Sequence record: PZ476263.1
Length of the DNA: 64,000 nt
Reading direction: 5' to 3' (one strand)
From: a phage
In this document: positions 3,004 through 24,420 of the stretch, in pieces
How the letters are laid out: each line of letters starts with the position of its first letter
Position numbering within the stretch: position 1 is the stretch's first letter
Position numbers and translations under genes: made by a program
The notes under the pieces: generated by a model
Seen by the model: only the letters and a program-made list of their open reading frames with translations
What the model was told of the DNA's origin: nothing
The model's database searches: none

Positions 3004-3091
3004 TTCTTCTCTCCTCTCTGTTGTTTAGATAAGACGTATACTACTCACTTTTAATCTTTAAGTCAATATACTTTATTAAATATTTTCACTT

Positions 3092-3118: not shown

Positions 3119-3127
3119 AAATCATTT

Positions 3128-4174: not shown

Positions 4175-4184
4175 TTATTACTCC

Positions 4185-5572: not shown

Positions 5573-6149
5573 CTGCTAAATCTGTCGCACCACCATTCTT
5601 TCCACTTTTGGTATACCCTTTTAGGAAATCTGGTTGAAGACTTTCACAGACCTTCATCATTTCATCTTTGCCCATTTTGATCTTGACCATCTTCGTCCCT
5701 TTATCATTCATGACCTCCTGCTCTTCACCTGGCAACTTATCACGCGCCCAAGATTTAACCGAAGTTGGTGCAACAGTATGTATGTTTTGCATAGTATACC
5801 CAGAACGGAGCAGTGTCAACTGAATACAGAAAAATAATCCTGCGAGATCTCTCGTTGCATTGCCTGCGGATCCGAAACTAAGAGATTCAAGTACAATATG
5901 CTCAACTTCAAATGATACACAAAGTTCAAGGATACGTCCAGAGATATATTCCATCTGCTCAGCTGGATTTTCAAAATACATTTGCCAATCTTTCGCATTG
6001 GACGACCCTGTAGTCTTCATAACTTCCTTAAAGATCGGTTCACCATTATCAAAAATTACACAAGCGCAGGATGCCATACTCTGATCAATCGATAATAGTT
6101 TCATCTTCTTCTCCTTTTGTCTCTTCGTCAAGGTAATGGTATTGATCAA
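5526..6149 (-). CDS. RuvC-like (RNase H fold) nuclease, putative
   Basis: LLSIDQSMAS (N-terminal catalytic Asp), HIVLESLSFG, GGATDLADAFLIG resembling RuvC carboxylate motifs. Confidence 0.4.
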   Translation of the reverse strand: MINTITLTKRQKEKKMKLLSIDQSMASCACVIFDNGEPIFKEVMKTTGSSNAKDWQMYFENPAEQMEYISGRILELCVSFEVEHIVLESLSFGSAGNATRDLAGLFFCIQLTLLRSGYTMQNIHTVAPTSVKSWARDKLPGEEQEVMNDKGTKMVKIKMGKDEMMKVCESLQPDFLKGYTKSGKNGGATDLADAFLIGRCYLERNGY

Positions 6150-6411
6150 TCAGAAAAACATAGTTTTTAATTTCACCATCCATATAGACCATGAAGGTAA
6201 CGTATTTCTCGTCGTAGAATGGATCTCCTACAACATAGACCTGACATACCTTATCGATACGATTATCGTACCATTGCACTCGCCAAGGCTCTTCGATCAT
6301 AGTCCAAGGACCTTCTACCTTGTAAATCTGGCGACCAGCGCCAGTTACGATAGAGGAGCGGATCTTATCCGCTTCCATTACATCATCAAAGCTTTTAGAA
6401 AAATCTGACAT
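6085..6411 (-). CDS. hypothetical protein
   Basis: 108 aa ORF. Confidence 0.35.
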   Translation of the reverse strand: MSDFSKSFDDVMEADKIRSSIVTGAGRQIYKVEGPWTMIEEPWRVQWYDNRIDKVCQVYVVGDPFYDEKYVTFMVYMDGEIKNYVFLIDQYHYLDEETKGEEDETIID

Positions 6412-7520
6412 TAAATCCCCACACGTTTCAGAGTAGATGCTAAAGTTGTCTTATCATTTTCTGTACGCTTCATATACACGCATTGGAAAATAATAGATGC
6501 CCATTGTCCCGCTGAATATTTACGTGGAATACCCATATGATCAACGTATTCAACACCGTCAGGGAACCAAGTTTTATACTGATCAATGATCGCCATCCAC
6601 ATCGATTTTTCATCAACACAAGGAGAAATAACCTGGAAAGCAGAAGTCTCACCAAATCGAATACCCTCAAATGTCTGATAAGGCTTAACGTTATCCGCAG
6701 AATCCCCAAACAACATTTGGTAACCGAAGAATTTTTTACCCCAACCTTTCACTTTTCCTGATTCCATCCAAATATCCCCCATAGAATCATCAATAAGCCA
6801 AAGCTCAGGATGCTTCCAACTACGTTCAGTAGGATCACGCATTGTATTAAAAAGCAGTGACGGAACCTGTACCTGATCCTTATCAAAGGATGCCACAATA
6901 TGACTGAACTTACCAGTCTTTTTGTAATTTAAATATCCCTTGTATCCAAGCATAGAAAGGTAATCATCTGCCTCGATACCATCGATAACGATAGCCCCAT
7001 ACTTTTTCTGCACATATCGTCGAGTTTCTCCAAGCAGCAAAGGACGAAGAGAATCTTCACGGTTACCTTTATAGATCTCCGGTGTAGGCAATGCCAATCG
7101 GAAGTTACCGCTCCCGCCGAGAACACCAAGGCCGTTTGACGATCCAACGTGCTCAAGTAATGCGTTGATCTTTACTTTCAAGAGATGCAGACAGTTCTCT
7201 ACTGGCTCTGGAGTTTGCTTCTCTATAATTTCAAAGTCATCACGGGTCCAAGGTTTAAATTCCTTACCTTTTGCCACGGCTTTCGCTTCCATGTTGATAT
7301 TCTGATCTTTAAGCCAACCACCAACGACATTTTTCTGTCGGCCCCAAAACTCTGTTTTGTTCTTAAATTCCTTTTCTCGTCCCGTACCTTTATGCCGTGC
7401 AATGATCGTTCGTTTTTCTGCACCTGCGGCAGCTACGAAACACGTTTGATCGAGGTCTAAAGCAACAACAACGTTGTCTTCAACAATGCCTGACCAATCT
7501 TCAACTAATGGATAACCCAT
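6411..7520 (-). CDS. 5'-3' exonuclease / flap endonuclease-like protein
   Basis: VIDGIEADDYL and FGDSADNVKP resemble FEN/5'-exonuclease metal-binding motifs. Confidence 0.45.
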   Translation of the reverse strand: MGYPLVEDWSGIVEDNVVVALDLDQTCFVAAAGAEKRTIIARHKGTGREKEFKNKTEFWGRQKNVVGGWLKDQNINMEAKAVAKGKEFKPWTRDDFEIIEKQTPEPVENCLHLLKVKINALLEHVGSSNGLGVLGGSGNFRLALPTPEIYKGNREDSLRPLLLGETRRYVQKKYGAIVIDGIEADDYLSMLGYKGYLNYKKTGKFSHIVASFDKDQVQVPSLLFNTMRDPTERSWKHPELWLIDDSMGDIWMESGKVKGWGKKFFGYQMLFGDSADNVKPYQTFEGIRFGETSAFQVISPCVDEKSMWMAIIDQYKTWFPDGVEYVDHMGIPRKYSAGQWASIIFQCVYMKRTENDKTTLASTLKRVGI

Positions 7521-7699
7521 TTAATCCTCCTTAAGAAATTTTTGCAATACCTTGATAATTTTTTCGCAGCAATCTTTTTCACTAACAATGATCACGTCTG
7601 TTGAATCACCATCATTTTGTAGGATGCTGACATACTTATGACCATTCGGACTTTTTCTTATTTCAATTCGAGTATCACCATAATCTTCATATTCAAACA

Positions 7700-8209
7700 T
7701 TAAAACGCCTCCCCATAATCTTCATCATCTTGTTTAGCCTCTGGACGCTTAAATTTAAAATCCGTCCCCATGTATTCGGCAAGATAATCAATATTTAAAG
7801 ACCACTCTTTTTGACTACGCTCTCGCCATACATCAAATTCAGACTTCAAATATTCAATTGCTTCTTCACGAGTGATCCCATTAACTTTCATAAACTGACG
7901 GATCGCTCGTTCAAGTTTACCGTTCTTTTCAGCAAGACCTGGATGATGGAATTCATGACAAGGTGGACAAAGACACATCAAACCAACAAGCTTAACTTCA
8001 TCATTCTCGAATATCCAATCCTCATGACATTCTACCGGATGTTTACGTCCATTGCCACCCTGACCACCACAAATTTGACAGTGATGGTTGTGCTCTGCAT
8101 AACATTTTCGACGAACCTTGTCCCAACCTGCTTGCGTAAGATAAGAACGAAGGTTAGTATTCCAAGCTGTCTTTGGAATTACACAAATCTTGTGCTTAAT
8201 ATTTTTCAT
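7700..8209 (-). CDS. zinc-binding (HNH-like) protein, putative
   Basis: Cys/His cluster HNHHCQICGG...CHEDW...CLCPPCHEFHH. Confidence 0.3.
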   Translation of the reverse strand: MKNIKHKICVIPKTAWNTNLRSYLTQAGWDKVRRKCYAEHNHHCQICGGQGGNGRKHPVECHEDWIFENDEVKLVGLMCLCPPCHEFHHPGLAEKNGKLERAIRQFMKVNGITREEAIEYLKSEFDVWRERSQKEWSLNIDYLAEYMGTDFKFKRPEAKQDDEDYGEAF

Positions 8210-8421
8210 CAGACTTTACCCTCTTGTTTCTTGAATACGATAATGAATAACCCAAAAAGATAGAACAAAGAAACCACTAAAGACGTTACCATCGTGAATC
8301 CAATAGCATCCCGAGCATCATACCCGATACTTAATAAACTGTCAACCAAAACTGAAGGGAAGTAGTAAAGTGATGTTGTTACTATGAAAATGTAAGCTGT
8401 CATGATTGATAAGAATTTCAT
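8209..8421 (-). CDS. small membrane protein
   Basis: 70 aa, two hydrophobic helices. Confidence 0.4.
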   Translation of the reverse strand: MKFLSIMTAYIFIVTTSLYYFPSVLVDSLLSIGYDARDAIGFTMVTSLVVSLFYLFGLFIIVFKKQEGKV

Positions 8422-8430
8422 TTTATGTCC

Positions 8431-8772
8431 TCACTTGTTAACTATTGCAAGCATGTTACGCGGCATCTTGATAATGCATGAATCTTCCATATTGAACTGA
8501 TCAAGATAGTCAGATAAAACACAGTAGTGATGCCAATCATAATCACCAAAGAAGATTTCAATCTTTGTGATACGATCAATAACAGGATTATCGCCAACAA
8601 CCTTTTCTAAAAGCAACCCTTCAAAAATATATTCCTTATCTTTGTAAAATGTACAAAGCTTTGATGGGATGTTCATTGCCCAGCGATCACGATTTTCTGA
8701 GTTTTCAAATCTGAACAATCCAACATCTTCAACCATATCAACTGCACGAATTTCAAGAATGATTTCTTTCAT
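8431..8772 (-). CDS. hypothetical protein
   Basis: 113 aa ORF. Confidence 0.35.
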   Translation of the reverse strand: MKEIILEIRAVDMVEDVGLFRFENSENRDRWAMNIPSKLCTFYKDKEYIFEGLLLEKVVGDNPVIDRITKIEIFFGDYDWHHYCVLSDYLDQFNMEDSCIIKMPRNMLAIVNK

Positions 8773-9245
8773 TAGTAAAGGTCCTCAGAGTAAAGTTCTT
8801 TCCTGTCCTTAACGACTTCAGGATCGACTTGATTAGCATATGTTGCAATAATCATTGCTTCTTCACGAGTCCAATAATTTGAGTATTGGTCGATAAATCC
8901 TTGGTCGTCACCACAAACATGGCGCGACACAAGTTTACCACTAACTTGATCAATAACTTCAGCCATATCTTTAGAATAATGACGAGCACCAGGAATAACT
9001 AGTGCACCACCATCTTTTAATTTAAAACGATTAGCTGCACAAACAATTATTCGTTGAAACTTCCGATCTTCGTACCAATGAGCGATCTGCCAACAGATTT
9101 CAGGAACATTGTTCAACACATCCTCTTCAGTATATTTAGTAAAATCACCATAAGAATTCAATTTTGCAGCCAAACTTTCTGGAGTCTCGCGTTGCAATGC
9201 TTTATCCAGCAAGGCCAAACGTTCTTCAAATGTTAACTTGGTCAT
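8772..9245 (-). CDS. hypothetical protein
   Basis: 157 aa ORF. Confidence 0.35.
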
Positions 9246-9443
9246 TTAGTTTCTCCAATAGATATTTTTGAATTTTTGCATTTTCCAAAGAACTTCAAAA
9301 TACGGCATTGCATAATAAGATATACCATCTTTTGTATACTCTCCGCAGGTACTAAAGCCTTCGGGATATTTTTTAAAGATGTTACCCTTTCTGATCTCTT
9401 CTTCAAGCCACTCAGGATCCGCCCTCAAAAGTTTAAAGTACAT
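9246..9443 (-). CDS. hypothetical protein
   Basis: 65 aa ORF. Confidence 0.3.
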   Translation of the reverse strand: MYFKLLRADPEWLEEEIRKGNIFKKYPEGFSTCGEYTKDGISYYAMPYFEVLWKMQKFKNIYWRN

Positions 9444-9454
9444 AGTTCGTCTCC

Positions 9455-9658
9455 TTATCGTTTAATATACTTGGAAGGACATGATCCTGCAAGTGATTTT
9501 CTGACTTCTGCGGAATTTCTTCCATCCGAATAAACACATACCTTTTTATTACCGTCACGATACTCATCTTCTAGGCTCAAGGTTTGAGATCCCTTGCAAT
9601 TGCCAACAAAAAACAATGTCATTGTTGAAACCACTAAAGCAGCTGCTATGTTTTTCAT
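9455..9658 (-). CDS. small lipoprotein (signal peptide + lipobox)
   Basis: MKNIAAALVVSTMTLFFVGNCKGS: hydrophobic signal followed by lipobox Cys; 67 aa. Confidence 0.5.
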   Translation of the reverse strand: MKNIAAALVVSTMTLFFVGNCKGSQTLSLEDEYRDGNKKVCVYSDGRNSAEVRKSLAGSCPSKYIKR

Positions 9659-9721
9659 TTACCCTCTCCTCTTTGATTTGATGGATACATCATATTATAA
9701 AACAAACCTCGTGTCAACACA

Positions 9722-9751
9722 TAAAAACAAAAAACCACCCCAAAGGGTGGT
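9722..9751 (-). terminator. intrinsic terminator
   Basis: ACCACCC-caaa-GGGTGGT hairpin; minus strand has a U-rich run after it; lies downstream of the gene ending at 9764. Confidence 0.55.
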
Positions 9752-9763
9752 CTATTTTAAAAA

Positions 9764-10030
9764 TCATTCAGTGTAATTTACGTTCTCTTCGTTATCCTGA
9801 ATGTTATCTTTTCGTGGGTTTGGTGTCAGATCCAAATGTGCCAACTTAGTGCCTTCAGGTAAATCATTTAAGCTGTATTCCACATTAACCAGTTGACCCG
9901 TCAGTTCATCCATTTTGTTAGAGATGTAAGCTGCAATTGAACGGCCTTCAAGAGTCGCCAGGTATTTCAGTTTCTGATAAGTAGTGTCGTTGAAATCAAT
10001 ATGCATTTTTATCCCCTTTATTATTTTCAT
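9764..10030 (-). CDS. hypothetical protein
   Basis: 88 aa ORF. Confidence 0.35.
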   Translation of the reverse strand: MKIIKGIKMHIDFNDTTYQKLKYLATLEGRSIAAYISNKMDELTGQLVNVEYSLNDLPEGTKLAHLDLTPNPRKDNIQDNEENVNYTE

Positions 10031-10064
10031 TATGCCCCTATCTAAAGGGGCTTGTTAACAATTC

Positions 10065-10295
10065 TTAAGCTAAACGAACATCTTCTGGCGTTGTGTAGAA
10101 ACCATCAACAACTTCCGAGGTTTGAGTTGTAAAGTCAACGATCACATCTTCTTGACCATATTCATTTTCCAAACCAACCACGATACCTTTGTCACCGATG
10201 TTAACACCTGCCAAAAAATATTCATTGTAAATATTTTCTACGTCAGTAGGATCGAAAATTACTTCATCACCCAGTTTCAATTCGCTAAATTGCAT
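10065..10295 (-). CDS. small acidic protein
   Basis: 76 aa, strongly acidic. Confidence 0.35.
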   Translation of the reverse strand: MQFSELKLGDEVIFDPTDVENIYNEYFLAGVNIGDKGIVVGLENEYGQEDVIVDFTTQTSEVVDGFYTTPEDVRLA

Positions 10296-10657
10296 TATTC
10301 GTTGTCCTCTTCAACATCATCTTCTTCAAGATTTGCAGGATTGCTACGTCCCATCAGCAGATCAAGTTCATTGAGTTGTTCAATCTTATCTTCCAGTTCA
10401 GCACGTTTCTTCTCGGCTGCATCCTGCTTGTCGTATTCACCATTAATCAGAGTACGCAGATACTTAGGATCAATGTTCAAGTCTTCTTTAGTGATTGCAA
10501 GAATATCTTTCAGGTCTTGAGCTGCATCTTTTTGACGACGAATTGCTTCGACACCTTCTTGAATGATATTAGCCAGGCGTTTACGAGCTTCTACGTCAGA
10601 CGGCAGGGTTTTCAGCAGTTCGATTTTAGATTTAGCCATTTTTAATTTCTCCTTCAT
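10295..10657 (-). CDS. coiled-coil protein with acidic C-terminus
   Basis: 120 aa, heptad-like charged repeats, C-terminal EEDDVEEDNE. Confidence 0.35.
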   Translation of the reverse strand: MKEKLKMAKSKIELLKTLPSDVEARKRLANIIQEGVEAIRRQKDAAQDLKDILAITKEDLNIDPKYLRTLINGEYDKQDAAEKKRAELEDKIEQLNELDLLMGRSNPANLEEDDVEEDNE

Positions 10658-10702
10658 TGATTAATATAAGTTAATTATACAGATTATTTAAAACAAGTCA
10701 AC

Positions 10703-11062
10703 TTAATTTTTAAAAGTTTTTTCGATCAGGGCGATAGCTTCTTTCCAGTTAGTTTCATCAACACGAAGACTCATATAATGCTGTTCCGTGTTGTCAACCA
10801 CTTCTTCAGTAACTTCTTCAAAGAATTTAAATTCTTCAGGAAGGATCTCAAAATAATCACCGCCTCCTGAATATGCCCTTTTTATGCTGCCGTTTGGAAA
10901 AACAACTGAACAAACACTACCGTAATCATCTACTAATTCCAAAACTTCGAATTGACCACCATTGTATGCAATCTTTTGAATAAGATCCTCGTTGTGAACT
11001 GAAGCATTTTTAAAATCACGAATAGTGTCGACCTTAAGTTTATATTTCTTTCCGATTTTCAT
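10703..11062 (-). CDS. hypothetical protein
   Basis: 119 aa ORF. Confidence 0.35.
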   Translation of the reverse strand: MKIGKKYKLKVDTIRDFKNASVHNEDLIQKIAYNGGQFEVLELVDDYGSVCSVVFPNGSIKRAYSGGGDYFEILPEEFKFFEEVTEEVVDNTEQHYMSLRVDETNWKEAIALIEKTFKN

Positions 11063-11130
11063 CTTCGTTTCCTCTCTTGGTTAAGTGAGGCCATTATGCC
11101 TCACTATTGATACCTTGTCAAATCTTTATT

Positions 11131-11463
11131 TTAAAATTCTTTAAACAAGATCTGCAAGATTGGAACTTCCAATCCTAGCTCGTCAAAGTTAATATCTGAC
11201 ATAAATACCGGAATTGTTCGAGTAATGAAAGAATCCCCGCCTGTATGGACTTTGAGTACCAACATCCCTTTGTACCCCGCCTTAAATTCTTGAACAAATG
11301 GACTTAAAGCACTTACGTAGATAACATGTTTCCCATCTGCAAATTTCTTGTAACGAGTACCTTTTGCCAGACCAGAGATCGGAATACCATCAAAAGTGAT
11401 TGTCGTCATTGTTGGATCGTATGCAATAATCGGACTTGGTTTACTTTGTGATTCTGTGCTCAT
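11131..11463 (-). CDS. hypothetical protein
   Basis: 110 aa ORF. Confidence 0.35.
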   Translation of the reverse strand: MSTESQSKPSPIIAYDPTMTTITFDGIPISGLAKGTRYKKFADGKHVIYVSALSPFVQEFKAGYKGMLVLKVHTGGDSFITRTIPVFMSDINFDELGLEVPILQILFKEF

Positions 11464-11476
11464 ATATTATCTCCTC

Positions 11477-11653
11477 TTATCGAACAAACATCTTGCCTTG
11501 GTCACAATAACCATTCTTGATCCCACGCGGCGCACTCAATTCTTTAAGTGCAACACCACCACACTTACAAACTGTACTTTCACGTTCAGATATTTTACGA
11601 TTCTGATCGAACTCTTCACCACACTTAGTGCATTTATAATTATACAGCGGCAT
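11477..11653 (-). CDS. zinc-ribbon protein (CxxC...CxC), FmdB-like
   Basis: 58 aa ORF not in the track: MPLYNYKCTKCGEEFDQ...CKCGG; fills the gap between flanking genes. Confidence 0.4.
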   Translation of the reverse strand: MPLYNYKCTKCGEEFDQNRKISERESTVCKCGGVALKELSAPRGIKNGYCDQGKMFVR

Positions 11654-11656
11654 TAC

Positions 11657-12457
11657 TTAAAAACCTCCCAGCTTTGCTTCAAAATATGTCAGCGGCTTCA
11701 TGATCTTGCCATTGCAATCTTTCCAGACTACACGATTAACACCGTTGACTTTCACAACATTACCTTTAACACCAGTATATCGACCCTTGTTACGTTTTTC
11801 AATAAGATCAGATTCCAGTTGAATCATCTCTTCAAGAGCTACATCATTCTCACTGAAATAGAAGTGCTGCTTGTAAAATTCCTTGTTGAATTCTTCAACT
11901 GTAGGAATCTTAGAATCATTAGAGTCAAGGACTTCTTCAAGTGCATCAATATAATCGAAATTAAATTTACGCATGATCTCAATTGTGTTTCGAACAACGC
12001 CGTTCGCCAGTTGTTGTCCAACATAATAAGTAAGAATGCTTAAGTTGTCAAAGATGTCTGAATTTTTCTCTGTGACGTAAGGAAAAATATCATATGGTCC
12101 ATCTTTATAAGTTTCATGCAAGCTTCGAGTTTGAAAATCTGCATAAACAGAAACAACGAAAAGATCACACAGTGCATCAATGACTTCTTTACGATTATTT
12201 TTACTAATGCCGAGTTCGTAAAGCTCATTATATTCTTCTTCTACAAGCTCCCACTGAAAGAGAAGCTCGGATGTGGATAGGGCGTGTTTACCACGCGCTG
12301 CAAAATTCCAATCAATAACACGCTGTGCACATTGAGAAACTTTTTCATTTTCGTCAATCTTTAACAGACTGCTAACAAATTCTTTCTCTTTAGTGTTCAT
12401 TTCTAGGAAATCAAACATCATACTCTCCTCTTTCTTAAGTGCAGGGCCATTATACAT
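11657..12457 (-). CDS. possible MazG-like all-alpha NTP pyrophosphohydrolase
   Basis: acidic helical motifs WELVEEEYNELYELG and EVIDALCDLFVV; weak. Confidence 0.25.
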   Translation of the reverse strand: MYNGPALKKEESMMFDFLEMNTKEKEFVSSLLKIDENEKVSQCAQRVIDWNFAARGKHALSTSELLFQWELVEEEYNELYELGISKNNRKEVIDALCDLFVVSVYADFQTRSLHETYKDGPYDIFPYVTEKNSDIFDNLSILTYYVGQQLANGVVRNTIEIMRKFNFDYIDALEEVLDSNDSKIPTVEEFNKEFYKQHFYFSENDVALEEMIQLESDLIEKRNKGRYTGVKGNVVKVNGVNRVVWKDCNGKIMKPLTYFEAKLGGF

Positions 12458-12472
12458 GACCCTTTCAATAAA

Positions 12473-12952
12473 TCAATAGTTATTGTAAATATCTTTCGCT
12501 TCTTCTCGTCGAGAATCCATAAGGATCTTTTCTTTAGCCAAAGAATCTTTTTTCAACTTGGCTTTCTTGTCAGATACCTTTTTCTTGATTGCATAGTACA
12601 ATACATCTCTTTCAACGTGGTTCATCCATTCGAGATCACCATTTACAAACAAAGTATCTCTCAAAACACCAGGCCACCTCTCAAAATATGTAACCCTGCT
12701 AGGATTCATAGAATCCACCAAAGTAAATTCCACTTCCCATGTATCAGGTGCATCATCATCTGAGTCTGGATTATCCGTGTAATAACCTGTGTGGATCGTG
12801 AACCAGCCAAGGTCATTGCGAATAGATCCGATTATCTTATCAGCAGGTGCTTTAACCATAATGTACTCGTAAACTTTGCAAATCACAATGTAAATCAGTA
12901 CAAATCCGATAGTAATGAAGATCCCTACAAAATCTGACAAAAACTCAATCAT
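12473..12952 (-). CDS. membrane-anchored protein
   Basis: N-terminal TM helix FVGIFITIGFVLIYIVI; 159 aa. Confidence 0.35.
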   Translation of the reverse strand: MIEFLSDFVGIFITIGFVLIYIVICKVYEYIMVKAPADKIIGSIRNDLGWFTIHTGYYTDNPDSDDDAPDTWEVEFTLVDSMNPSRVTYFERWPGVLRDTLFVNGDLEWMNHVERDVLYYAIKKKVSDKKAKLKKDSLAKEKILMDSRREEAKDIYNNY

Positions 12953-14322
12953 TTCTTAGTCCTCTTAACCAGCGCTCGTAATGTCTCAAGAAGAGAATCG
13001 GCATGTTCAATAACTTCACCAAGGGTATTCGCTTTAGTCTTATCATGACGGATCTCAACGAACTTATAATTTAGTCGTGGTAAAAACAGAGACTTAAGAT
13101 CCTTATTCTCAGCATCTGTAATATCATTTGCCTTGATCGTGATAATCTGACCAATAAAATATTCCGGTGCTTTCTTACGTAAAGCGTCTGTCAGTCCTGA
13201 ACCTACACCAACTTCCAAAAGACCATCTCGTGTACGGCAAACAAGAGAACCGACAAGCGAAGGATCTTTTTTGTGAGGTAAGGTAGCAACAACCTCAAGA
13301 TCCACGTCGAATTCGTTCTTCAGCTTAATACCTTTCTTAGTCTTATTGTCACCCCAAGGCATGTTTGCCTCTTTCAAGACCGTACCTTCCTTCTTCTGTT
13401 GACGCATCTCGATGAAGTGGTCAATAGCCTCTTCAAGACTATCGATCTGACGACCACGGATCATCTTTAAATGAGAAGACTCATCCACATAGTTGACAAT
13501 ATTTTCAACCTGCTTACGGCGGTCTTTATATTTTTTCTTAGACTTACGTGCAATATACTCGTCCATAGAAACAACATCCCAAACAACCAAGCGTACCAAA
13601 TTAGGATCAATATTTTCAGGATCCTGGTTCAGATAGCCGTTACCGATCTCTCGTGGCTGAACTCCGTGTGGATAAGACAGATCAATAACTAAACCTTCCC
13701 CGTGCATAACAAAAGGACCATCAGAATTGGCTTTTTCTTTCAGGTTTTGCTCAAGTGAAGGAATACACCGGAAATTAAGCTCTTTCCCTGATCGTGAACG
13801 ATAAATGATCTGTTCAGGCCAAACCATAATGTCTGCATAAAGTCCGTCCATCTTCTCGTCGGAGAAAGCGCCCTCATAATCAAACTTGATCAACAGATCC
13901 TCTTTAAAAAGCGTATAACTTTGGTAAGGTGGCTCTGTGATCAGACCTTTCCACACCTTGTTTGTAAGAGTGGTCTGTACACCACAGTCGAGATCACGAT
14001 TTATAACTTTTAACAGAGTTTCCGGCTCAGAGCAAAGCTGAACAGTGTTGATCATTTCTTCACGGGCTGCATAGCCTGTAATTTTTCGACCGCAAACAAA
14101 TTTAACCAGATATCGGATCGAGTCAACAAGACTGTTATTGCCTTGGTGGAATGTTGATTCCATGACTTTCAAGCCACGGACATAAAAATTCAACTCTTTG
14201 GAATAGGTGACTTGGAATACATATTCCAGATCTTTATTATCTCGATTTGCGACCAAGATTGCTTCTTTCTCTTTTGTGGATCGGGTTGCTGCCAGTTGAT
14301 TGATAATATCTGTTACTTTCAT
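12949..14322 (-). CDS. ATP-dependent DNA ligase
   Basis: KMDG (KxDG adenylation motif I) plus EGLVIK-like segment; likely true start is ATG at 14322 with AAGGAG RBS (track ORF extends to 14430). Confidence 0.6.
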   Translation of the reverse strand: MKVTDIINQLAATRSTKEKEAILVANRDNKDLEYVFQVTYSKELNFYVRGLKVMESTFHQGNNSLVDSIRYLVKFVCGRKITGYAAREEMINTVQLCSEPETLLKVINRDLDCGVQTTLTNKVWKGLITEPPYQSYTLFKEDLLIKFDYEGAFSDEKMDGLYADIMVWPEQIIYRSRSGKELNFRCIPSLEQNLKEKANSDGPFVMHGEGLVIDLSYPHGVQPREIGNGYLNQDPENIDPNLVRLVVWDVVSMDEYIARKSKKKYKDRRKQVENIVNYVDESSHLKMIRGRQIDSLEEAIDHFIEMRQQKKEGTVLKEANMPWGDNKTKKGIKLKNEFDVDLEVVATLPHKKDPSLVGSLVCRTRDGLLEVGVGSGLTDALRKKAPEYFIGQIITIKANDITDAENKDLKSLFLPRLNYKFVEIRHDKTKANTLGEVIEHADSLLETLRALVKRTKK

Positions 14323-14332
14323 TTTGTCTCCT

Positions 14333-14656
14333 TTATTTTTTAATAACTCGAAGTCTTTTCGCCAACACCCAAGTCCCGCCTTGACTTTCAGGACGATTGA
14401 ACATTTCGATACCTTCCACTTCAACTTCATACCATTTGCGTATTTCTCCCGACTTGAGATTCATACTCAAATGTGGTGCATGAGGTTTCAATGTGCAATG
14501 CCAACCTGGTCTTATTGCAAACCCCCGTGTCGGGTGGTTCTCCGCCTCCATCCAAACATCTGGCTCAATCACCAATTTACGATTGATAAATAATGGTCCT
14601 ATTGTACCATCCTTTCTTACTCGAAACAACTTATATGCTTTGATCTTTTTAATCAT
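14333..14656 (-). CDS. hypothetical protein
   Basis: 107 aa ORF. Confidence 0.35.
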   Translation of the reverse strand: MIKKIKAYKLFRVRKDGTIGPLFINRKLVIEPDVWMEAENHPTRGFAIRPGWHCTLKPHAPHLSMNLKSGEIRKWYEVEVEGIEMFNRPESQGGTWVLAKRLRVIKK

Positions 14657-14881
14657 TTAGTTTTTCCTTTTGAGTTTTCCACACAAAGGGCCTTCTTTAT
14701 AATCAGGATTCTCTTCGAAGAATTCCTCATTCTTTAATAGCATAGCGATCATACTTTTACGCAATGTTGAAGATGCCTTCATACCACGATACCAAGCGTC
14801 AAACCAACTCTTTTTAAGTGGGCTTTTATACATCTTAGTAAAGTATTGAGGATGACTTTCATGACTGATCTTGATTCTCAT
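14657..14881 (-). CDS. hypothetical protein
   Basis: 74 aa ORF. Confidence 0.3.
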   Translation of the reverse strand: MRIKISHESHPQYFTKMYKSPLKKSWFDAWYRGMKASSTLRKSMIAMLLKNEEFFEENPDYKEGPLCGKLKRKN

Positions 14882-15330
14882 TATACATCACCTGTTGACC
14901 AAAGCAAGTAAAATTTTTCAGGGATAAAATAAAAATCTTCCACAGTACCATCCTCTCTGTTTATGTCTTCATGATAACGACACTTAACCGAATAAACACC
15001 AGGTTTCATTGCCTTAAGATCGTGCTTAGTCATACTCTCAAGAAAGTTATTTTCAAGCAAGGAAGGTGCGATATTTGGTTGTTTAATGATGCACGACTCT
15101 CCGCCGATACCTATTGCAACAATAAACTCGGCATTGTAAGGTGAATCATATACAGGTTTATCACTTTTATTTTTAAGGCAATTGATCATTCCTGCATTAA
15201 GCCATGTTTCAGACAGACTTTTTCTTTTTGACGACACGTTTCTTCTCCTTAACCTGTTCAACAGGTTTTCTCTTAGGCTTAGGTTTTGGTTTGTACGGTT
15301 CCTCAGGCTTCTGGTAAAGCCCAAGAACAA
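14881..15330 (-). CDS. hypothetical protein (start probably internal)
   Basis: 149 aa ORF overlapping the upstream gene; likely begins at a downstream Met. Confidence 0.3.
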   Translation of the reverse strand: MFLGFTRSLRNRTNQNLSLRENLLNRLRRRNVSSKRKSLSETWLNAGMINCLKNKSDKPVYDSPYNAEFIVAIGIGGESCIIKQPNIAPSLLENNFLESMTKHDLKAMKPGVYSVKCRYHEDINREDGTVEDFYFIPEKFYLLWSTGDV

Positions 15331-15637
15331 CTCTTTCTATTGCACTCATAGGAACGGTAGTCATCTTACGTCTCTCTGCGTCAGGGAGCTGTAATTCCCA
15401 CACACCCAACCAATAAGTTAAATCATCTATACGTTCCTGAACCCAAGGGTCTGGTTTCGGAATAGTTAAGAGTCTAACCAACTCTTCTTCGCATGTCAAT
15501 AGACATTCTTTAAGTTTTTCAATAGGTGTATTGAAAACAAAAGCAGTCTTATCAAAAGGCTTCTTCTCTTCTACCATTACTCCCCCTTTTCTTCTTCCCA
15601 ACCATATTTTCTCATACGCTCTTTGTATTGAGGCCAC
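15209..15637 (-). CDS. hypothetical protein with Lys/Pro-rich C-terminal tail
   Basis: C-terminal PKPKPKRKPVEQVKEKKRVVKKKK. Confidence 0.35.
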   Translation of the reverse strand: MASIQRAYEKIWLGRRKGGVMVEEKKPFDKTAFVFNTPIEKLKECLLTCEEELVRLLTIPKPDPWVQERIDDLTYWLGVWELQLPDAERRKMTTVPMSAIERVVLGLYQKPEEPYKPKPKPKRKPVEQVKEKKRVVKKKKSV

Positions 15638-15807
15638 TTCTTCTCAATCACAGCCTGTGTAATCTCCGCATCCATAGAGACATGAACGTATTCACTATAA
15701 AGCTCGTCAATGTGCTCTACAAGGTCATCGCGTCCCTCTGAACGCAAGAATGCACGGACAGTTGCAATCTTTCGCCCAAGGAGGCACTCTTTGCACTCAC
15801 AAGTCAT
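15577..15807 (-). CDS. hypothetical protein
   Basis: 76 aa ORF. Confidence 0.3.
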   Translation of the reverse strand: MTCECKECLLGRKIATVRAFLRSEGRDDLVEHIDELYSEYVHVSMDAEITQAVIEKKWPQYKERMRKYGWEEEKGE

Positions 15808-16106
15808 TCCCCCTCCTTATTTAAAATTAACATATGTTTAAATTTATTTTTTCTTGCATAGATCAAGAGACTCATATCCACACAAGCGATCCTGTCCTTA
15901 TCCCCTGCACAAACCAGAATGAAGTTATCACCGTCTTGTTCCACATTCACAACTTCGAGGTCTGTGTCATGCTTCTCAAGGAGCTTTTCAAGCCAATCAA
16001 ACTGATAGTTTAAATCCACAAGCCATTTATAGTACCGAGGCTTGCTCTGTGCCTTATAGATCTCCTCCATCTTCTCAATAACGTTATCACACATAGTCAA
16101 AGACAT
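15804..16106 (-). CDS. hypothetical protein
   Basis: 100 aa ORF. Confidence 0.35.
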   Translation of the reverse strand: MSLTMCDNVIEKMEEIYKAQSKPRYYKWLVDLNYQFDWLEKLLEKHDTDLEVVNVEQDGDNFILVCAGDKDRIACVDMSLLIYARKNKFKHMLILNKEGE

Positions 16107-16280
16107 TTCTTATCTCCCTTTGTTATTTATTGTTCTTACGGTCTTTACCAATATCTTGATTGAGGTATCTCACAAGAGAGCAACCCAACCAAATAACGGA
16201 TACCACAAATCCAATCACACATACAGTGTGAAACTCTACAGAGTTCATCCCAAAAGCCACAATGTCGTTAGTACACTCCA

Positions 16281-16589
16281 TCAGATCATCTCCAAAGTTA
16301 TTAATACATTATCCAAATCATCAGCCACAAGCTGAAGCTCAGGTTTCATAGTATCTTCCACACGATGATAAATCAAACCTTTTTCCACATATTGATTCAT
16401 CACTCCGTGATAGTTCCCCAAAATGGTGTACCAGTCACATTCGTAAACAGTCACTACACATACCTTGAGGCCAGCTTTCGCAGAGTGCCAAGCTTCACGC
16501 ATAGCTTGAAGATGACTTAATTCATTTTCTGATAACTTTTTAGATTTATTATTCAATAACATTATAAGTAATTCTCTCTTTCGTTTCAA
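16281..16589 (-). CDS. hypothetical protein (first gene of leftward early operon)
   Basis: 102 aa ORF immediately downstream of minus-strand promoter. Confidence 0.4.
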   Translation of the reverse strand: MKRKRELLIMLLNNKSKKLSENELSHLQAMREAWHSAKAGLKVCVVTVYECDWYTILGNYHGVMNQYVEKGLIYHRVEDTMKPELQLVADDLDNVLITLEMI

Positions 16590-16597
16590 TGATGTGC

Positions 16598-16626
16598 ACT
16601 ATATCTATGTAAAAATCTCATGTCAA
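16598..16626 (-). promoter_or_regulatory. sigma70-type promoter for leftward genes (-35 TTGACA, 17-bp spacer, -10 TATAGT)
   Basis: plus strand shows ACTATA (16598-16603) and TGTCAA (16621-16626), i.e. consensus hexamers on the minus strand. Confidence 0.55.
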
Positions 16627-16775
16627 TACTTTTAATTAATAAATTTTAAGATAAAATATAAAAGATCTCTAAAGATCTGTTGACTTGATCTATAGATCTA
16701 TGTTAAATATGTTAAATGTTTATAAAGATCTTGTTTTTTTTTAATGTTTTTATTATTTATTGTTTTAATAATAAT

Positions 16776-16826
16776 TATGAATGAAATGAATAATTATTAT
16801 ATAATTTATGAATGAAATGAATAAAT
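16776..16826. repeat. direct repeat pair (TTATGAATGAAATGAATAA x2) in AT-rich control region
   Basis: two near-identical ~20-nt copies separated by ~10 nt. Confidence 0.6.
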
Positions 16827-16908
16827 TATAATGTAAAGGGGTTTGGTGAGCGGCGGCGAGCCAGGGAATTCTAATATAGTATTGTATGCCTAAACGGGCA
16901 TAAAGGGT

Positions 16909-16936
16909 TTGACTTGTTAAGAAGCTCGTGTATGAT
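16909..16936 (+). promoter_or_regulatory. sigma70-type promoter for rightward early genes (-35 TTGACT, 16-bp spacer, -10 TATGAT)
   Basis: TTGACT at 16909-16914, TATGAT at 16931-16936, followed by GAAGGAGG RBS and ATG at 16967. Confidence 0.55.
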
Positions 16937-16966
16937 GGGTAACGAAGACCAGAAGGAGGTGAAGTT

Positions 16967-17353
16967 ATGTTTGATGTAAACACCTCTGTTGGGAAGAAAT
17001 CATTTGAAGATGATACATTCACCATGTTGCCTCTCCGGTGGGTTGTTGAACTCTCTGGGGAGGATTTGAAAAGGATGATACTTTTGAGGTGGAGGTTTTC
17101 ATTCTTTGCAGAGTTTGCTTCCCGACAGGGTGAACCTGTGGCTATGTGTTTTTATGAATCTCAGGTTGCGTTGTGTGAGTTGTTCCAGATGTCCAGTACA
17201 AGTCAAGCTAAGGTAAGCGCATTCCTTAAGAAGATGGAAGCTGGGGGTTACATAAGTATACAAAGAGAGAAGGTTATCATTAACGGAAAGTCGAAACCTC
17301 GGCACTATATCGTTATCAATGACCCAATCCTTAAAGAAAAGTATAACTACTGA
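16967..17353 (+). CDS. hypothetical early protein
   Basis: 128 aa ORF with strong RBS directly after promoter. Confidence 0.45.
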   Translation: MFDVNTSVGKKSFEDDTFTMLPLRWVVELSGEDLKRMILLRWRFSFFAEFASRQGEPVAMCFYESQVALCELFQMSSTSQAKVSAFLKKMEAGGYISIQREKVIINGKSKPRHYIVINDPILKEKYNY

Positions 17354-17363
17354 GGAGAAAACT

Positions 17364-17585
17364 ATGATGTTCGAAAACAATATCGATAAACCAAATTTAA
17401 AGCCTCTAGAAAGCTCTCTAGCTAAAAGAACTGAAGAGGTCGGGTGTTTGCTTACCTTTATGGCTTTTAACGCTCAGAACGTTTCTAAGGAAGTTTATAA
17501 AATTGTTGATGAATCACTGCTCCCAAAGGCAAAGGTTAATCACATGATTGAGCTAAACGAGATGCTTGATTCGTTTGTTCGTTAA
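17364..17585 (+). CDS. hypothetical early protein
   Basis: GAGGAG RBS before ATG at 17364 (track ORF starts at 17319). Confidence 0.4.
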   Translation: MMFENNIDKPNLKPLESSLAKRTEEVGCLLTFMAFNAQNVSKEVYKIVDESLLPKAKVNHMIELNEMLDSFVR

Positions 17586-17641
17586 TTGACTATCGTCCAT
17601 TATCCCAGTAAAATGAAGATATACTCTTACTTAACTGATTA

Positions 17642-17893
17642 ATGGATATGAAAAAATTTAAACTTTACTTAGACTACTGTTCTTCGGACTATACGACTGA
17701 AGAATACGCAAGCCTGACCGACAGCTACGATGAGGCATTTGAAGAAGGTAATGATGTAGCTTTCGATACAACAGGTTTTTCACTTGAGTGTTGGAAAAAG
17801 GTTGACTTTGGTAGAGGAAACAGCATATACTTCTTCTACCCCAACGAGAACGACTACTCAACTCGTTACAAAATGACTTTTATGGAGGATTAA
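17642..17893 (+). CDS. small acidic early protein
   Basis: 83 aa, acidic. Confidence 0.4.
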   Translation: MDMKKFKLYLDYCSSDYTTEEYASLTDSYDEAFEEGNDVAFDTTGFSLECWKKVDFGRGNSIYFFYPNENDYSTRYKMTFMED

Positions 17894-18109
17894 ATGAAAT
17901 TCAGTATCATTATTGATTTTGAAGTAGATGAAACCAATGAGCAGCTTTTAGAAGCACTTAACGACGAGATTCAACGTACTGGTCAAACTATCCAGGAAAA
18001 ATTTGCAACGTTCCCTCAGGCATTTTATGAAACTCTTGTTGACGATATGCAAGGTCAAGATGAAGAGTTCCCTGGTTTGGAAATTAAAGTTCGTATGATG
18101 GAGGAATAA
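17894..18109 (+). CDS. small acidic early protein (paralog of next gene)
   Basis: 71 aa; shares D.D.TN.QL...TG.T...F pattern with 18109..18327. Confidence 0.4.
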   Translation: MKFSIIIDFEVDETNEQLLEALNDEIQRTGQTIQEKFATFPQAFYETLVDDMQGQDEEFPGLEIKVRMMEE

Positions 18110-18964: not shown

Positions 18965-19047
18965 GCGCGGGTGTATCTCAACGGTCTTCTAAACCGTCGT
19001 TAATCGAGTAATTGGAGTATGAAGGTTCGAGTCCTTCCTCCCGCGCT
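18965..19047 (+). tRNA. tRNA-like element, atypical (canonical anticodon arm with UCU and T-arm, but no canonical D-arm or encoded CCA)
   Basis: acceptor GCGCGGG/CCCGCGC; ACGGU-CUUCUAA-ACCGU anticodon hairpin; GAAGG-TTCGAGT-CCTTC T-arm. Confidence 0.35.
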
Positions 19048-21695: not shown

Positions 21696-22050
21696 ATGTC
21701 TGCTACATTCGCACCTGCGAGTCGCAAGCAACAAATGGTTCTCGAATCTACAGCACAGATTATGGTAATAGGTGGTGCAGCAGGATCAGGTAAATCATAC
21801 CTTTTACAGTTGATGCCTTTGCTTATTGTAAACGACCCTAAAACAGCCTGCATCATGTTTCGTCGTACTGTACCGCAGATTCGTGGACAAGGTGGCTTGT
21901 TTGACAAAGCTAAAGATATTTATAACCAGCTGCCTCCGGTAGTTAAGCCGAAGTTTAAAGAGAACGAGATGACTGCTACATTCCCTAACGGAGCAACCGT
22001 TAAGTGGCAGTCTATGCAACACGTAAGTGATAAATACGACATCCAGGGGT
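21696..22050 (+). CDS. terL: terminase large subunit, exon 1 (Walker A ATPase segment)
   Basis: IGGAAGSGKSY Walker A; frame terminates at TAA 22050-22052 inside predicted intron 1; predicted 5' splice site after U22050. Confidence 0.6.
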
Positions 22051-22960
22051 AAAAATTTCCTGCCCATCGTATCTTAATCGGTGAAACTCTGTTATAATAA
22101 GTACAGACAATACCGAGATCCATTACCTGAAATGACAGTAGGGAGATATGATGAAAAAATTTGAAATTGTTCCAAGCAAACCTGAATTTTCCGTAAGTGA
22201 AGACGGGCTGATTATGTTTACCTCTACAGGTACTATTCTTAAGCCGTATGTTGATAAGGATGGTTACCACAGGGTTAGAAATTTCTCTGCTGGAGGTAAA
22301 TCTCATTACATCGCCGTTCATCGCGCCGTTGCTGAGGTTTTTGTTAAAAACCCTAACCCAAAAGTGTTTAAGATTGTTAATCACTTGGATAATGTTAAGA
22401 GCAACAATCATAAAACCAATTTGGAATGGACAACCGAATCATTAAACCGAGTTCATGCAGTTCATGCCAACGGTACAGCATCTGTTAGAAACAATGTTAA
22501 ATTTACAGAAGGTCAAGTCAGAAAGGTGTGTGAACTTTTGAGCTTGGGCTATCGGATAGTTGATATTGTGAAACTTACAGGCGTTGATAGATTCAATGTG
22601 ATGGCAATTAGAAGCGGAAAATCTTGGGTTCAGATCTCTTGTGAGTTTGAAACTTTAAAAGTAGAAAGAAAAGATACACTGTCTGAAAAGACGATTCTTT
22701 GGATTAAAGACCAAATTAATCGCCAAAGGTCAGATGATGAAATACTTTTAATGTCGGTAAGACTTACAAAAGAAGAGCTTGAAAGAGCAAAGAAGATTAT
22801 TTCATTGATGGATTGTAACGACTAATGCTGATGAGTGTAAGCATGTAGGGCCAAGCGGTCCGAAACGATACGCCAAGGATGGAAGATATAGTCTGAACTA
22901 TATGGTGACATATAGCTGCTTAAGCAGGGTTAAGATTAGCGATCTTAATCGAACACAATG
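22051..22960 (+). mobile_element. group I intron 1 (about 910 nt) with internal HNH homing endonuclease ORF
   Basis: S element AAGATATAGTC at 22883-22893, R-like AACGACTAA at 22818-22825, P9 hairpin CTATATG-GTGA-CATATAG (GNRA loop), candidate IGS GCCC near 5' end, 3' end ...GAACACAATG. Confidence 0.6.
22148..22825 (+). CDS. intron-encoded HNH homing endonuclease
   Basis: DGYHRV...HRAVAEVF...NHLDNVKSNNHKTNLEW HNH core; lies wholly between terminase exons. Confidence 0.65.
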   Translation: MMKKFEIVPSKPEFSVSEDGLIMFTSTGTILKPYVDKDGYHRVRNFSAGGKSHYIAVHRAVAEVFVKNPNPKVFKIVNHLDNVKSNNHKTNLEWTTESLNRVHAVHANGTASVRNNVKFTEGQVRKVCELLSLGYRIVDIVKLTGVDRFNVMAIRSGKSWVQISCEFETLKVERKDTLSEKTILWIKDQINRQRSDDEILLMSVRLTKEELERAKKIISLMDCND

Positions 22961-23014
22961 TGGAATTTACATTTATAGGTGTGGACGAAGGCACTCAGTT
23001 TGAGTGGGAGCAGT
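22961..23014 (+). CDS. terL: terminase large subunit, exon 2 (54-nt micro-exon encoding Walker B-like FTFIGVDEGTQFEWEQ)
   Basis: in-frame segment between two intron cores; hydrophobic stretch + DE typical of terminase Walker B. Confidence 0.5.
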
Positions 23015-23341
23015 TAATCTAGCTGCCTCGTACAGTAATGTACGATGAGAAATTCTTGTGAATTGCTGGAAAATCCTTAGAGCTTGTAAAACTACAACAT
23101 GACCTGCAAAGGTGAGTGTGAATGTTAAAAATTTACAAGATTGGACGATCAGCCTCCAAGCCTCTTTACGAGAGGAAGGTTCAACGACTAGCCGAAAGGC
23201 GTAGATCATAAGCAAATGATGATCGAAGTGCAAGACCCCTACCTTATTGGTAGGGTGAAGATATAGTCTGATCTGCATGGTAACATGCAGCAGTGCTTGA
23301 GTGCACGGCAACGAACTTGCGATCCGTTGCGAACATAACAG
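23015..23341 (+). mobile_element. group I intron 2 (about 327 nt, ORF-less)
   Basis: IGS-like GCTGC pairing with exon GCAGU; R-like GTTCAACGACTAG 23179-23191; S AAGATATAGTC 23258-23268; P9 CTGCATG-GTAA-CATGCAG; 3' end ...GAACATAACAG. Confidence 0.55.
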
Positions 23342-24420
23342 TAGAATACATGATGTCTCGTCTTCGTTCCAGTTCTTCTTACCCTTCACGAATGGTAATT
23401 AGTTGTAACCCTGATCCTGATCATTATCTTCGTAAGATGGTTGATTGGTATCTCGATAAGGATGGTTATCCTGATCCTACAAAGGATGGAGTCATTCGAT
23501 ATTTCGTTCGAGTTGATGACCAATACATGTGGGGCGAATCAGTAGAAGAGCTTAAGAAGCGGTACGGTAAGAAATGTAAGCCTGTTTCTTTTACATTTAT
23601 ATCTTCTACTATTTACGATAACCCACCAATGCTTATTAACAACCCAGACTATCTAGCACAGCTGGAAGGTCTTAATGAGGTTGACAGAGCAAGACTGTTA
23701 CACGGCAACTGGGATGCACGTCCTCAGGGTGCTAACTATTTTAAACGTTCTTTTCTTAAAGAGGTTGATGTTCTTCCTTTAGGTGTAGATAAGGTTAGAT
23801 CATACGATAAAGCAGGAACTGAACGTTCTACAGGTAATAAAACACCTGACTTTACAGCCGGAATCGGTGTGGCGAGAGATCAGGACGGAATTTATTATCT
23901 TTTTGGCGATTATTGTGAAGAGTTTGTTGATGAAGGTGATTGGTCTACTGGCAACCTTGGTAGGTTCTGTAAGAAAGCTGGTGAACGAGATACGATCATT
24001 ATGAAACAAGCAATTCATGACGGTGATGATGTTAGAATAATATTCCCTGTTGACCCTGGTCAAGCGGGTATTGCTGAATTCACTACATCTTCCCGAGAAT
24101 TATTAAATCAAGGATTCATTGTTGAGAAAGACCCAACTCCTGGTAACAAGAAGAAGCTTGTACGCTTCTCTCCGTTTGCTAACCTTGCTCAGAACGGATT
24201 TGTTAGGATTGTTAAAAAGTCTTTCCCTTTGGATACCTATGAAGCATTAATGAAAGAGCTTGAATCTTTCAATGGTGAAAGGTCAACAGGGACACGTAAA
24301 GATGACTGGGTGGATGCTATCTCAACCGGAATAAATTTCCTTGAGAAAACAGAAATAGTCAGGGCTGTTACAATACCACGACCTTCTGCCCCAACACTTT
24401 ATTCGAAGTATCGACGATAA
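23342..24420 (+). CDS. terL: terminase large subunit, exon 3 (nuclease domain)
   Basis: continues ...EYMMSRLRSSSSYPSRMVISCNPDP...; acidic nuclease motifs DQDGIYYLFGDY, DPGQAGIA, DDWVDAISTG. Confidence 0.6.

Follow-up and report, generated by a model that had tools for sequence, protein, structure and literature searches.

The 64,000-nucleotide stretch of sequence record PZ476263.1 that was analyzed here (the window) comes from a myophage of the subfamily Vequintavirinae, related to rV5 and infecting E. coli. Its single divergent junction, a gap at 16563-16966, contains a module of about 280 bp between two outward-facing promoters, made up of a GATC/AGATCT cluster, a stretch of 9-14% G+C with repeats, a GC block and a dyad at the -35 element. 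On the strength of sequence comparison, and with moderate confidence, we interpret the module as a replication origin that depends on an initiator, similar in type to ori lambda or to the origins of iteron plasmids; it would be located between divergent sigma-70 promoters and overlap the operator of the gene for its own binding protein. The 128-amino-acid (128-aa) winged-helix protein encoded by the first rightward gene is a candidate for this origin-binding protein and for an autoregulator.

An initial annotation of the window had listed two back-to-back promoters, five clustered GATC sites, a T9 run and a pair of repeats in the gap, and had suggested a replication origin or a methylation-sensitive control point. 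Every listed feature was recovered where it had been placed, and the order of the elements was found to be conserved across five Vequintavirinae genera, so that the arrangement is not due to chance. The annotation had further described the gap as 377 bp separating leftward and rightward early arms. The divergent junction is real, but the most likely start of the leftward gene is the ATG at 16562, which gives 93 aa as in all relatives and agrees with the 282-nt genes annotated in UPEC06, LTH01, A5-4 and W70; with this start the gap would measure 404 bp. The term "early" does not fully suit the rightward arm, in which about 4 kb of small genes and tRNAs are followed by terminase and structural genes. 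The features of the gap and of the two genes facing away from it are as follows.

16281..16562, minus strand: first gene of the leftward unit, an open reading frame of 93 aa in phrog_12865 (function unknown)
16598..16626, minus strand: predicted leftward sigma-70-type promoter, TTGACA-17-TATAGT, 11 of 12 consensus matches in a consensus scan
16630..16840, no strand: extremely AT-rich segment resembling a DNA unwinding element, from a nearest-neighbour stability scan; 14% G+C over 200 bp and 9% over 16738-16837
16661..16732, no strand: GATC cluster from a motif search, five sites (16664, 16674, 16687, 16695 and 16727); the hexamer AGATCT occurs at four sites and a 5' AAA tract at three
16727..16766, plus strand: T-rich tract from the last GATC onwards, including GATCTTGTTTTTT, which has one mismatch to the oriC 13-mer consensus GATCTnTTnTTTT, and the T9 run (beginning at 16734)
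16775..16793, plus strand: direct repeat 1, TTATGAATGAAATGAATAA, 19 nt
16806..16824, plus strand: direct repeat 2, an exact 19-nt copy, 31 bp downstream of repeat 1
16838..16866, plus strand: G+C-rich block GGGGTTTGGTGAGCGGCGGCGAGCCAGGG, conserved in close relatives
16870..16906, plus strand: 37-bp element TCTAATATAGTATTGTATGCCTAAACGGGCATAAAGG with the dyad ATGCC-N6-GGCAT at 16886-16901, from alignment and repeat search
16909..16936, plus strand: predicted rightward sigma-70-type promoter, TTGACT-16-TATGAT, 10 of 12 consensus matches in a consensus scan
16967..17353, plus strand: gene of the 128-aa winged-helix protein, with the ribosome-binding site AAGGAGG at 16953-16959

The nearest records are the Escherichia phages UPEC06, LTH01, A5-4, A7_1, A73 and W70, which carry no genus assignment and show about 82% nucleotide identity over the region. 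Aligned with four of these close relatives, the gap has a mean column identity of 89%, at least equal to that of the flanking genes, and both direct repeats as well as 16838-16916 are almost invariant. Relatives of the 128-aa protein are encoded in 74 phage records, from which 15 gaps were drawn for examination. All 15 are 270-680 bp long, with a leftward unit on one side and, on the other, the winged-helix gene at the head of the rightward genes. The shared layout runs from the leftward promoter through the GATC cluster, the T-rich tract, two direct repeats, a GC block (in some lineages) and one to three dyads to a TTGACA -35 element and the gene. This order is kept while the sequences diverge among E. 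coli phages, Certrevirus, Seunavirus, Mydovirus, Henunavirus and Avunavirus. A search for related loci in viral contigs returned three loci only, and two scans of such contigs with degenerate dyad patterns gave scattered, apparently unrelated hits.

An origin of the proposed type is expected to have an AT-rich unwinding element next to its binding sites, and such an element was found at the predicted stability minimum of the window, of W70 and of rV5. The least stable 200-bp duplex of the window starts at 16632, with -200.7 kcal/mol against -230.1 kcal/mol for the next locus and a G+C content of 14% against 27%. In the complete W70 genome, the homologous tract is the same outlier (-205.1 against -233.4 kcal/mol). 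The corresponding rV5 tract at 65010-65150 is the least stable of the genome at 60, 100, 150 and 200 bp, by a margin that is clear at 100 bp (-101.7 against -110.9 kcal/mol) and 150 bp but marginal, at only 3 kcal/mol, at 200 bp. Copies of the 13-mer GATCTnTTnTTTT with one mismatch are located at 16727 (plus strand) and 16655 (minus strand), and a tract homologous to the former, GATCTT.T.TTTT(A)TTGTTTT, is present in all genera.

The two 19-nt direct repeats beside this minimum are embedded in 31-nt tandem units, 16763-16793 and 16794-16824. Their sequence is identical in UPEC06, LTH01 and A5-4, both W70 copies share one A-to-T change, and diverged copies are found in Certrevirus, SSBI34 and ChuuTotoro. 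Certrevirus, ABPH49 and ChuuTotoro have GC blocks of the related form GCGAG..CGAG, and in rV5 the AT-rich tract is flanked by a GC-rich near-palindrome. Neither the TTATGAATGAAATGAATAA repeat, the dyad nor TAAAGGGTTTGAC has further copies beyond chance in the window. Two other explanations of these elements were rejected. A structured RNA was discarded, as the GC block, the 37-bp element and the leader fold no better than shuffled sequences (z -0.6 to -1.3), and a search of Rfam (E <= 1) returned nothing within 16563-16966 and only tRNAs nearby. A relation to the pseudo-ToxI repeats of phage phiTE was likewise discarded on repeat length and sequence; these are 36-nt ToxI-like repeats described as a separate escape locus (PMC3475682).

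The dyad within the 37-bp element is centred 15.5 bp upstream of the rightward -35 element. Other genera have TATTCC/GGAATA, TATACCC/GGGAATA or TGTCCCC/GGGGACA at the same position, so the arms differ while the symmetry is kept; in Pectobacterium and Cronobacter phages it is degenerate. A second dyad upstream and a third over the leader are often added in other genera: Seunavirus, Mydovirus and Henunavirus show two copies upstream and one over the 5' leader. Seunavirus and Mydovirus have two to three dyads and rV5 has four, whereas the lineage of the window has one together with the two exact 19-bp direct repeats. All six close relatives carry the 37-bp element at two places, and the second copy of the window phage would fall outside the window. 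In W70 this second copy (68929-68965) is inverted, identical to that of the window, and located 64 kb away, nearly opposite on the 137-kb map. It comes just after a stop codon and is followed by a terminator-like GC hairpin; a strong early promoter, TTGACA-17-TAGAGT, is found about 130 bp downstream of the element.

Outward-facing -35/-10 pairs precede both first genes of the junction, and the divergent sigma-70 region is predicted from consensus and conservation. The scan of 15500-18000 returned 10 promoter-like sites, a count not above chance (8.1 in shuffled sequences, standard deviation 2.9); the two named promoters are within its top three scores and are conserved in relatives. The leftward -35 and -10 elements are invariant or nearly so in the alignment with four relatives, and the tgtcaa element of this promoter is also present in the gaps of Certrevirus, Mydovirus and Seunavirus. 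Where the window has its rightward promoter, TTGACA ... TAAGAT is found in the close relatives, and TTGACA follows the dyad in nearly all genera. A promoter clearly reading into the AT-rich tract was not found by the promoter scan in this lineage. The GATC cluster of the window is 20-30 bp longer than that of the closest relatives (at 16679-16716); the additional bases bring in a promoter-like TTGACT-17-TTAAAT with two GATC sites in the spacer, which is not conserved. Two GATC sites are also found in the 17-bp spacer of the leftward promoter (TTGACAGGAGGATCATCAGATCATAGAAT, minus strand) of the Cronobacter/Enterobacter Certrevirus phages CR9 (L007 1150-1170) and CR3 (L006 1158-1175), where they are extra to the cluster. 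Going by their position, promoter activity could respond to methylation more directly there than in the window.

The AlphaFold model of the 128-aa protein (predicted local distance difference test score 69.6) has the order of helices and strands of a winged helix. Its family is tiny, with 18 clusters in 1.84 billion representatives, and corresponds to phrog_8453, of unknown function. When 10 family members were compared with PHROG families, the sole named secondary matches were replication initiators or loaders, namely phrog_270 (8 of 10 members, best E 2.3e-7), phrog_428 (6 of 10), the DnaD-like helicase loader phrog_186 (4 of 10, best E 1.5e-6), the "replication initiation O-like" phrog_678 (4 of 10) and phrog_8102 (4 of 10). 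Sequence searches of Pfam, NCBIfam and the PDB gave only sub-threshold generic matches and reached no curated initiator family; nothing among the solved structures fell below E 0.19, there was no Rep_3 or RepA match, and the C-terminal extensions of three distant family members matched no known domain.

A comparable arrangement was found in rV5 beside a different protein. No orthologue of the 128-aa protein is detectable in this phage, whose gp075 is a 116-aa winged-helix protein annotated as replication initiation protein. It belongs to phrog_12838, shares the secondary hits 8102, 428 and 270 with the family of the window, and has near-threshold matches to HTH_36 and DUF6945. Because the comparison of the two profiles was not significant, both are treated as analogous, and they are possibly very remote relatives. 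Directly downstream of the gp075 gene, in the region 64900-65320 (L050 1900-2320), are four tandem dyads with a period of about 21 bp: three near-identical copies, TGTCCGTnnnACGGACA / ACTGTCCGTGATACGGACAC, and, third in the row, the variant TCTGCCCGTAATACGGACAC. Next to them is a very AT-rich stretch of about 150 bp, in which two GATC sites and the only perfect GATCTnTTnTTTT of the genome are found, and after it the GC-rich near-palindrome. The gene called "replication initiation protein" in rV5 thus adjoins a lambda-like array of repeats and AT-rich DNA, which is not mentioned in the literature found on rV5 or on origins in the subfamily. On the same strand, the order of GATC, T-rich tract and dyads is common to rV5 and the window, and short shared strings, e.g. 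ATAAAA.ATAAAAGATCT, agree with it.

Functional data are available for the rV5-like phage Bas54 from a transposon study, in which the counterpart of gp075, bas54_0212, is labelled "putative transcriptional regulator" (bioRxiv 10.1101/2025.11.20.689424). By synteny, the dyads are covered by the small open reading frame bas54_0213 just downstream. Mean read counts were 13.6 for bas54_0212 and 18.1 for bas54_0213, compared with 135-192 for most neighbours and 78 for bas54_0215; transposon reads in the two genes are thus about 10-fold below those in neighbouring genes (bioRxiv 10.1101/2025.11.20.689424). With the sites placed by synteny, the protein and its putative binding sites are functionally linked by a common fitness phenotype.

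The analysis establishes how the module is built and how far it is conserved, where duplex stability is lowest, and to which fold class and distant families the protein belongs; from this we infer a course of binding, unwinding and loading, with a possible role of methylation. Host RNA polymerase would fire both promoters early, so that the winged-helix protein is made. This protein would bind the dyad and probably the direct repeats, and would autoregulate its own promoter. Its binding, together with the negative supercoiling between the diverging polymerases, would open the AT-rich stretch, at which a primase-helicase and DNA polymerase like those of phage T7 could then load; the relatives encode such a T7-like replisome, with a family A polymerase and a primase-helicase of the gp4 type. 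Methylation of the GATC sites, whether by host Dam or by a phage adenine methylase, may tune melting or timing, as in oriC and P1 oriR.

The origin suggested by the initial annotation is partly supported, by the stability minimum in three genomes, the dyad and iteron-like repeats beside it, the winged-helix neighbour gene and the GATCT-led T-rich elements. It gains nothing from GC skew, which had been proposed as a check, and the GATC cluster is not a fixed part of the module. The gap contains the skew minimum both for the window (16629) and for W70 (132500), but the rV5 minimum coincides with the strand switch (66689) and is 1.4 kb away from the module. Skew tracks the orientation of the genes and cannot separate the readings, and we rejected it as origin evidence; the rV5 paper likewise obtained only strand-switch points from GC and AT skew (PMC3606486).

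Several further observations weigh against an origin. One dyad and two direct repeats are fewer sites than in classical origins, and the protein is a single small winged helix without a helicase-recruiting domain. The match of the window protein itself to phrog_270 is weak (E 0.088), and homology of its family to gp075 is not significant (hhalign probability 9%). Consensus scans of the gap for DnaA, IHF and Fis-like sites gave no convincing site: the DnaA 9-mer (TTATCCACA) is matched within 16563-16966 with two mismatches at best, at a site that the relatives do not conserve, and an IHF core is absent. A DnaA-dependent origin of the oriC type was rejected, as the gap contains no cluster of DnaA boxes. 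In Bas54, bas54_0212 and bas54_0213 were classed "Intermediate" and not essential, and no insertions were recovered from about 2 kb of noncoding DNA, whose flanking genes are 2.5 kb apart (bioRxiv 10.1101/2025.11.20.689424); this insertion-free region may be the main origin there. All in all, origin function in this phage and genus is a candidate assignment drawn from sequence.

The insertion-free region of Bas54 corresponds to 104013-106618 of rV5 (L053 4013-6618), which is 2.6 kb of noncoding DNA at a convergent junction, with 40% G+C and five GATC sites. It represents another origin candidate for that genus. A comparably large noncoding region was not found in the window or in the corresponding part of UPEC06.

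The strongest competing explanation, which we consider possible but to have a distinctly smaller chance than an origin, is that the region only controls transcription and no replication starts there. The winged-helix protein would then be an autoregulated repressor or activator acting at the dyad (at about -50 of its own promoter) and at the second genomic site, and the AT-rich tract and repeats would be UP elements, bending or looping sites, or a control point for the tRNA and late unit. A typical transcriptional operator would indeed look much like this one. The distance from dyad to -35 element is constant across genera, with the copy over the leader in Seunavirus, Mydovirus and Henunavirus in addition to the two upstream, and the identical inverted 37-bp copy in W70 precedes a strong early promoter. 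Structure searches with the 128-aa protein return many transcription factors, the PcCB7V record annotates the orthologue or analogue as a transcriptional regulator, as is the case for Bas54, and insertions in the Bas54 genes are tolerated. Moreover, the module heads the tRNA-terminase-structural unit in both gene arrangements, that of rV5 and that of the window, and could control late genes. Transcription control leaves the genome-wide stability minimum in three genomes unexplained, however, and does not require a module of this size: an ordinary divergent promoter gap of W70 (64375-64526) needs only 152 bp and lacks all of the additional elements. The four rV5 dyads come after the winged-helix gene, whose annotated promoter is about 400 bp away from them, and no promoter is annotated alongside the dyads; no named secondary PHROG hit is a transcription-regulator family.

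The GATC sites were evaluated separately. The cluster is the densest of the window (5 sites in 70 bp, the next best having 3), at about 2.4 times the window mean, in line with the expectation of the initial annotation that GATC density here exceeds the average. Five sites turn up in 5 of 300 block shuffles of the window, and for shuffles of the gap alone P(>=5 GATC) is 0.0014. In the complete, 137-kb W70 genome the homologous gap is again the densest cluster (5 sites, next 4), a value reached in 7 of 150 shuffles. In one genome alone the cluster is only modestly significant; its recurrence in independent genera is the strong argument against chance. Close relatives have 5 or 6 sites, with number and spacing shifted by insertions and deletions. 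The Seunaviruses PVP-SE1 and FENT2 have three sites at exact 13-bp steps; spacing is 8 to 42 bp across the other lineages and 8-32 bp in the window. Clustering is found in most genera, but rV5 (two sites) and the ChuuTotoro lineage retain the module with only 1-2 GATC, so that the cluster is frequent, not obligatory, and dispensable for the core function.

Among 45 sites compared across 13 lineages, 43 have an A immediately before GATC, and the two positions preceding it are A or T throughout; a T immediately after GATC is found in only 30. This asymmetry makes the motif directional, WWAAGATCW, and not a simple palindrome. Many of the sites follow AAA and so resemble the pap GATC sites (TAAAAGATCG) with their 5' A-tracts; poly-A on the 5' side is reported to slow Dam (PMC4417163). 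The wording "host-Dam-sensed" in the initial annotation is doubtful, as relatives have their own annotated N6-adenine methyltransferase gene and the virion DNA of the Certrevirus CB7 appears Dam-methylated (PMC7344957). In W70 the methyltransferase has no Pfam match and is known by annotation only. Taken over the whole sequence, GATC is over-represented for base composition: the window has 326 sites where 235 are expected, and W70 has 837 where 503 are expected. This excess fits a phage with protected or methylated DNA rather than GATC avoidance.

Such sites could form a methylation-sensitive switch, which would pass from the fully methylated to the hemimethylated state on replication and allow SeqA, Lrp or a phage factor to re-time the leftward or rightward promoter. 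A switch could coexist with an origin or with transcription control; as the primary function of the region we regard it as unlikely, and the data neither support nor exclude it. The conserved clustering, the pap-like A-tracts, the adenine methyltransferase gene annotated in relatives and the apparent Dam methylation of CB7 DNA are in its favour, but no site or motif of a regulator was identified, and site number and spacing drift freely, down to the 1-2 GATC of rV5 and ChuuTotoro. In this phage the cluster also lies 38-110 bp upstream of the leftward -35 element and not over the promoter.

Origin and methylation could also be combined. In this case, which we regard as a long shot, the module would be an origin and at the same time a replication-coupled clock for late genes: the A-tract GATC sites would be slow substrates for the methylase, and hemimethylated or unmethylated daughter DNA, read by SeqA or by the winged-helix protein, would turn the rightward unit on or the leftward unit off. 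T4-type late factors are absent from rV5-like phages (PMC3606486). If true, the clock would couple late transcription to replication through methylation in these phages.

That the clustered GATC sites control cleavage by terminase, as in a packaging (pac) site like that of P1, is very improbable: although the relatives are circularly permuted headful phages, with a sub-molar restriction fragment of phiTE that might be a pac fragment (PMC3475682), and the region is 4.7 kb upstream of the terminase gene, it is neither in nor beside the small-terminase gene, CB7 reads show no preferred terminus (PMC7344957), and rV5 has only two GATC. The AGATCT/TGATCT sites of the window form a single cluster, on one side only. 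In P1 pac, two sets of TGATCA/G flank the cleavage point.

The genes around the gap form two blocks. The leftward block comprises the genes at 308-16562, including DNA ligase, and the product of its first gene has no Pfam match. The rightward block extends from 16967 to about 58.8 kb and contains small genes, five or six tRNAs, the terminase gene split by group I introns and the structural genes. The possible sixth tRNA is a tRNA-like Rfam match at 18967-19045 (35.8 bits, above the gathering score) just upstream of tRNA-Met, which was not called by ARAGORN. The gene of the large terminase subunit (21696-24420) has three exons, 21696-22058, 22960-23016 and 23341-24417, separated by two intervening sequences. 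Rfam places a group I intron inside the gene at 22986-23290 (78.7 bits) and gives a weak partial match at 22793-22915; the first insert contains a 225-aa open reading frame (22148-22825) with weak matches to NUMOD4 and HNH_3. The rV5 terminase gene is split in like manner.

In the literature searched, no replication origin has been defined for Vequintavirinae, and neither the module nor any origin of the subfamily is described. Phages of this subfamily are widely isolated and serve in therapy and biocontrol. With a candidate origin that is short, conserved and sharply delimited, and with a candidate protein to bind it, the origin question becomes experimentally tractable; phage engineering would also be aided, both in keeping payloads off essential cis sites and in building replicons. 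The kind of element is familiar; new are this instance, its conservation throughout the subfamily and the link to a minimal winged-helix protein.

Among known systems, the Dam-dependent switches of pap, agn43 and Mu mom also have several A-tract GATC sites in a regulatory gap, in pap as TAAAAGATCG. They differ from the module in that no Lrp or OxyR site was identified here, and that a lytic phage has five sites 8-32 bp apart instead of two distant ones. The primary origin of T7 and oriF/oriG of T4 resemble it in having promoters beside an AT-rich unwinding tract, and the relatives of the window phage have a T7-like replisome. These origins, however, need no dedicated origin-binding protein and have no repeats, and a promoter clearly reading into the tract was not found in this lineage. 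E. coli oriC, with its GATCTnTTnTTTT 13-mers, AGATCT boxes for ATP-DnaA and sequestration by SeqA, shares the GATCT-led T-rich elements and the high GATC density; the perfect 13-mer of rV5 and the three Seunavirus GATC sites at 13-bp steps add to this likeness. Unlike oriC, the module has no 9-mer DnaA box closer than two mismatches, and the number of its sites is variable.

Resemblance is also seen to P1 oriR and the iteron plasmids F, pSC101 and R6K, in which 19-bp direct repeats and an AT-rich tract with about five GATC sites adjoin a binding-protein gene whose promoter has an inverted-repeat operator. The phage module differs from these in the absence of DnaA boxes, in having two repeats 31 bp apart, in the lack of a Rep_3 or RepA match and in belonging to a virulent phage with its own replisome. 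Ori lambda consists of repeated dyad binding sites, an AT-rich unwinding tract and a flanking palindrome. In contrast to ori lambda, the module is located outside the protein gene, includes a GATC cluster and has, in this lineage, one dyad with two direct repeats, and its protein is only 128 aa long, without the C-terminal domain by which O protein recruits the helicase loader. As in ori lambda, dyads stand beside an AT-rich tract and a palindrome, most clearly in the four tandem copies of rV5, nearby promoters could supply transcriptional activation, and the binding protein is a winged-helix protein with family members that match the PHROG "replication initiation O-like".

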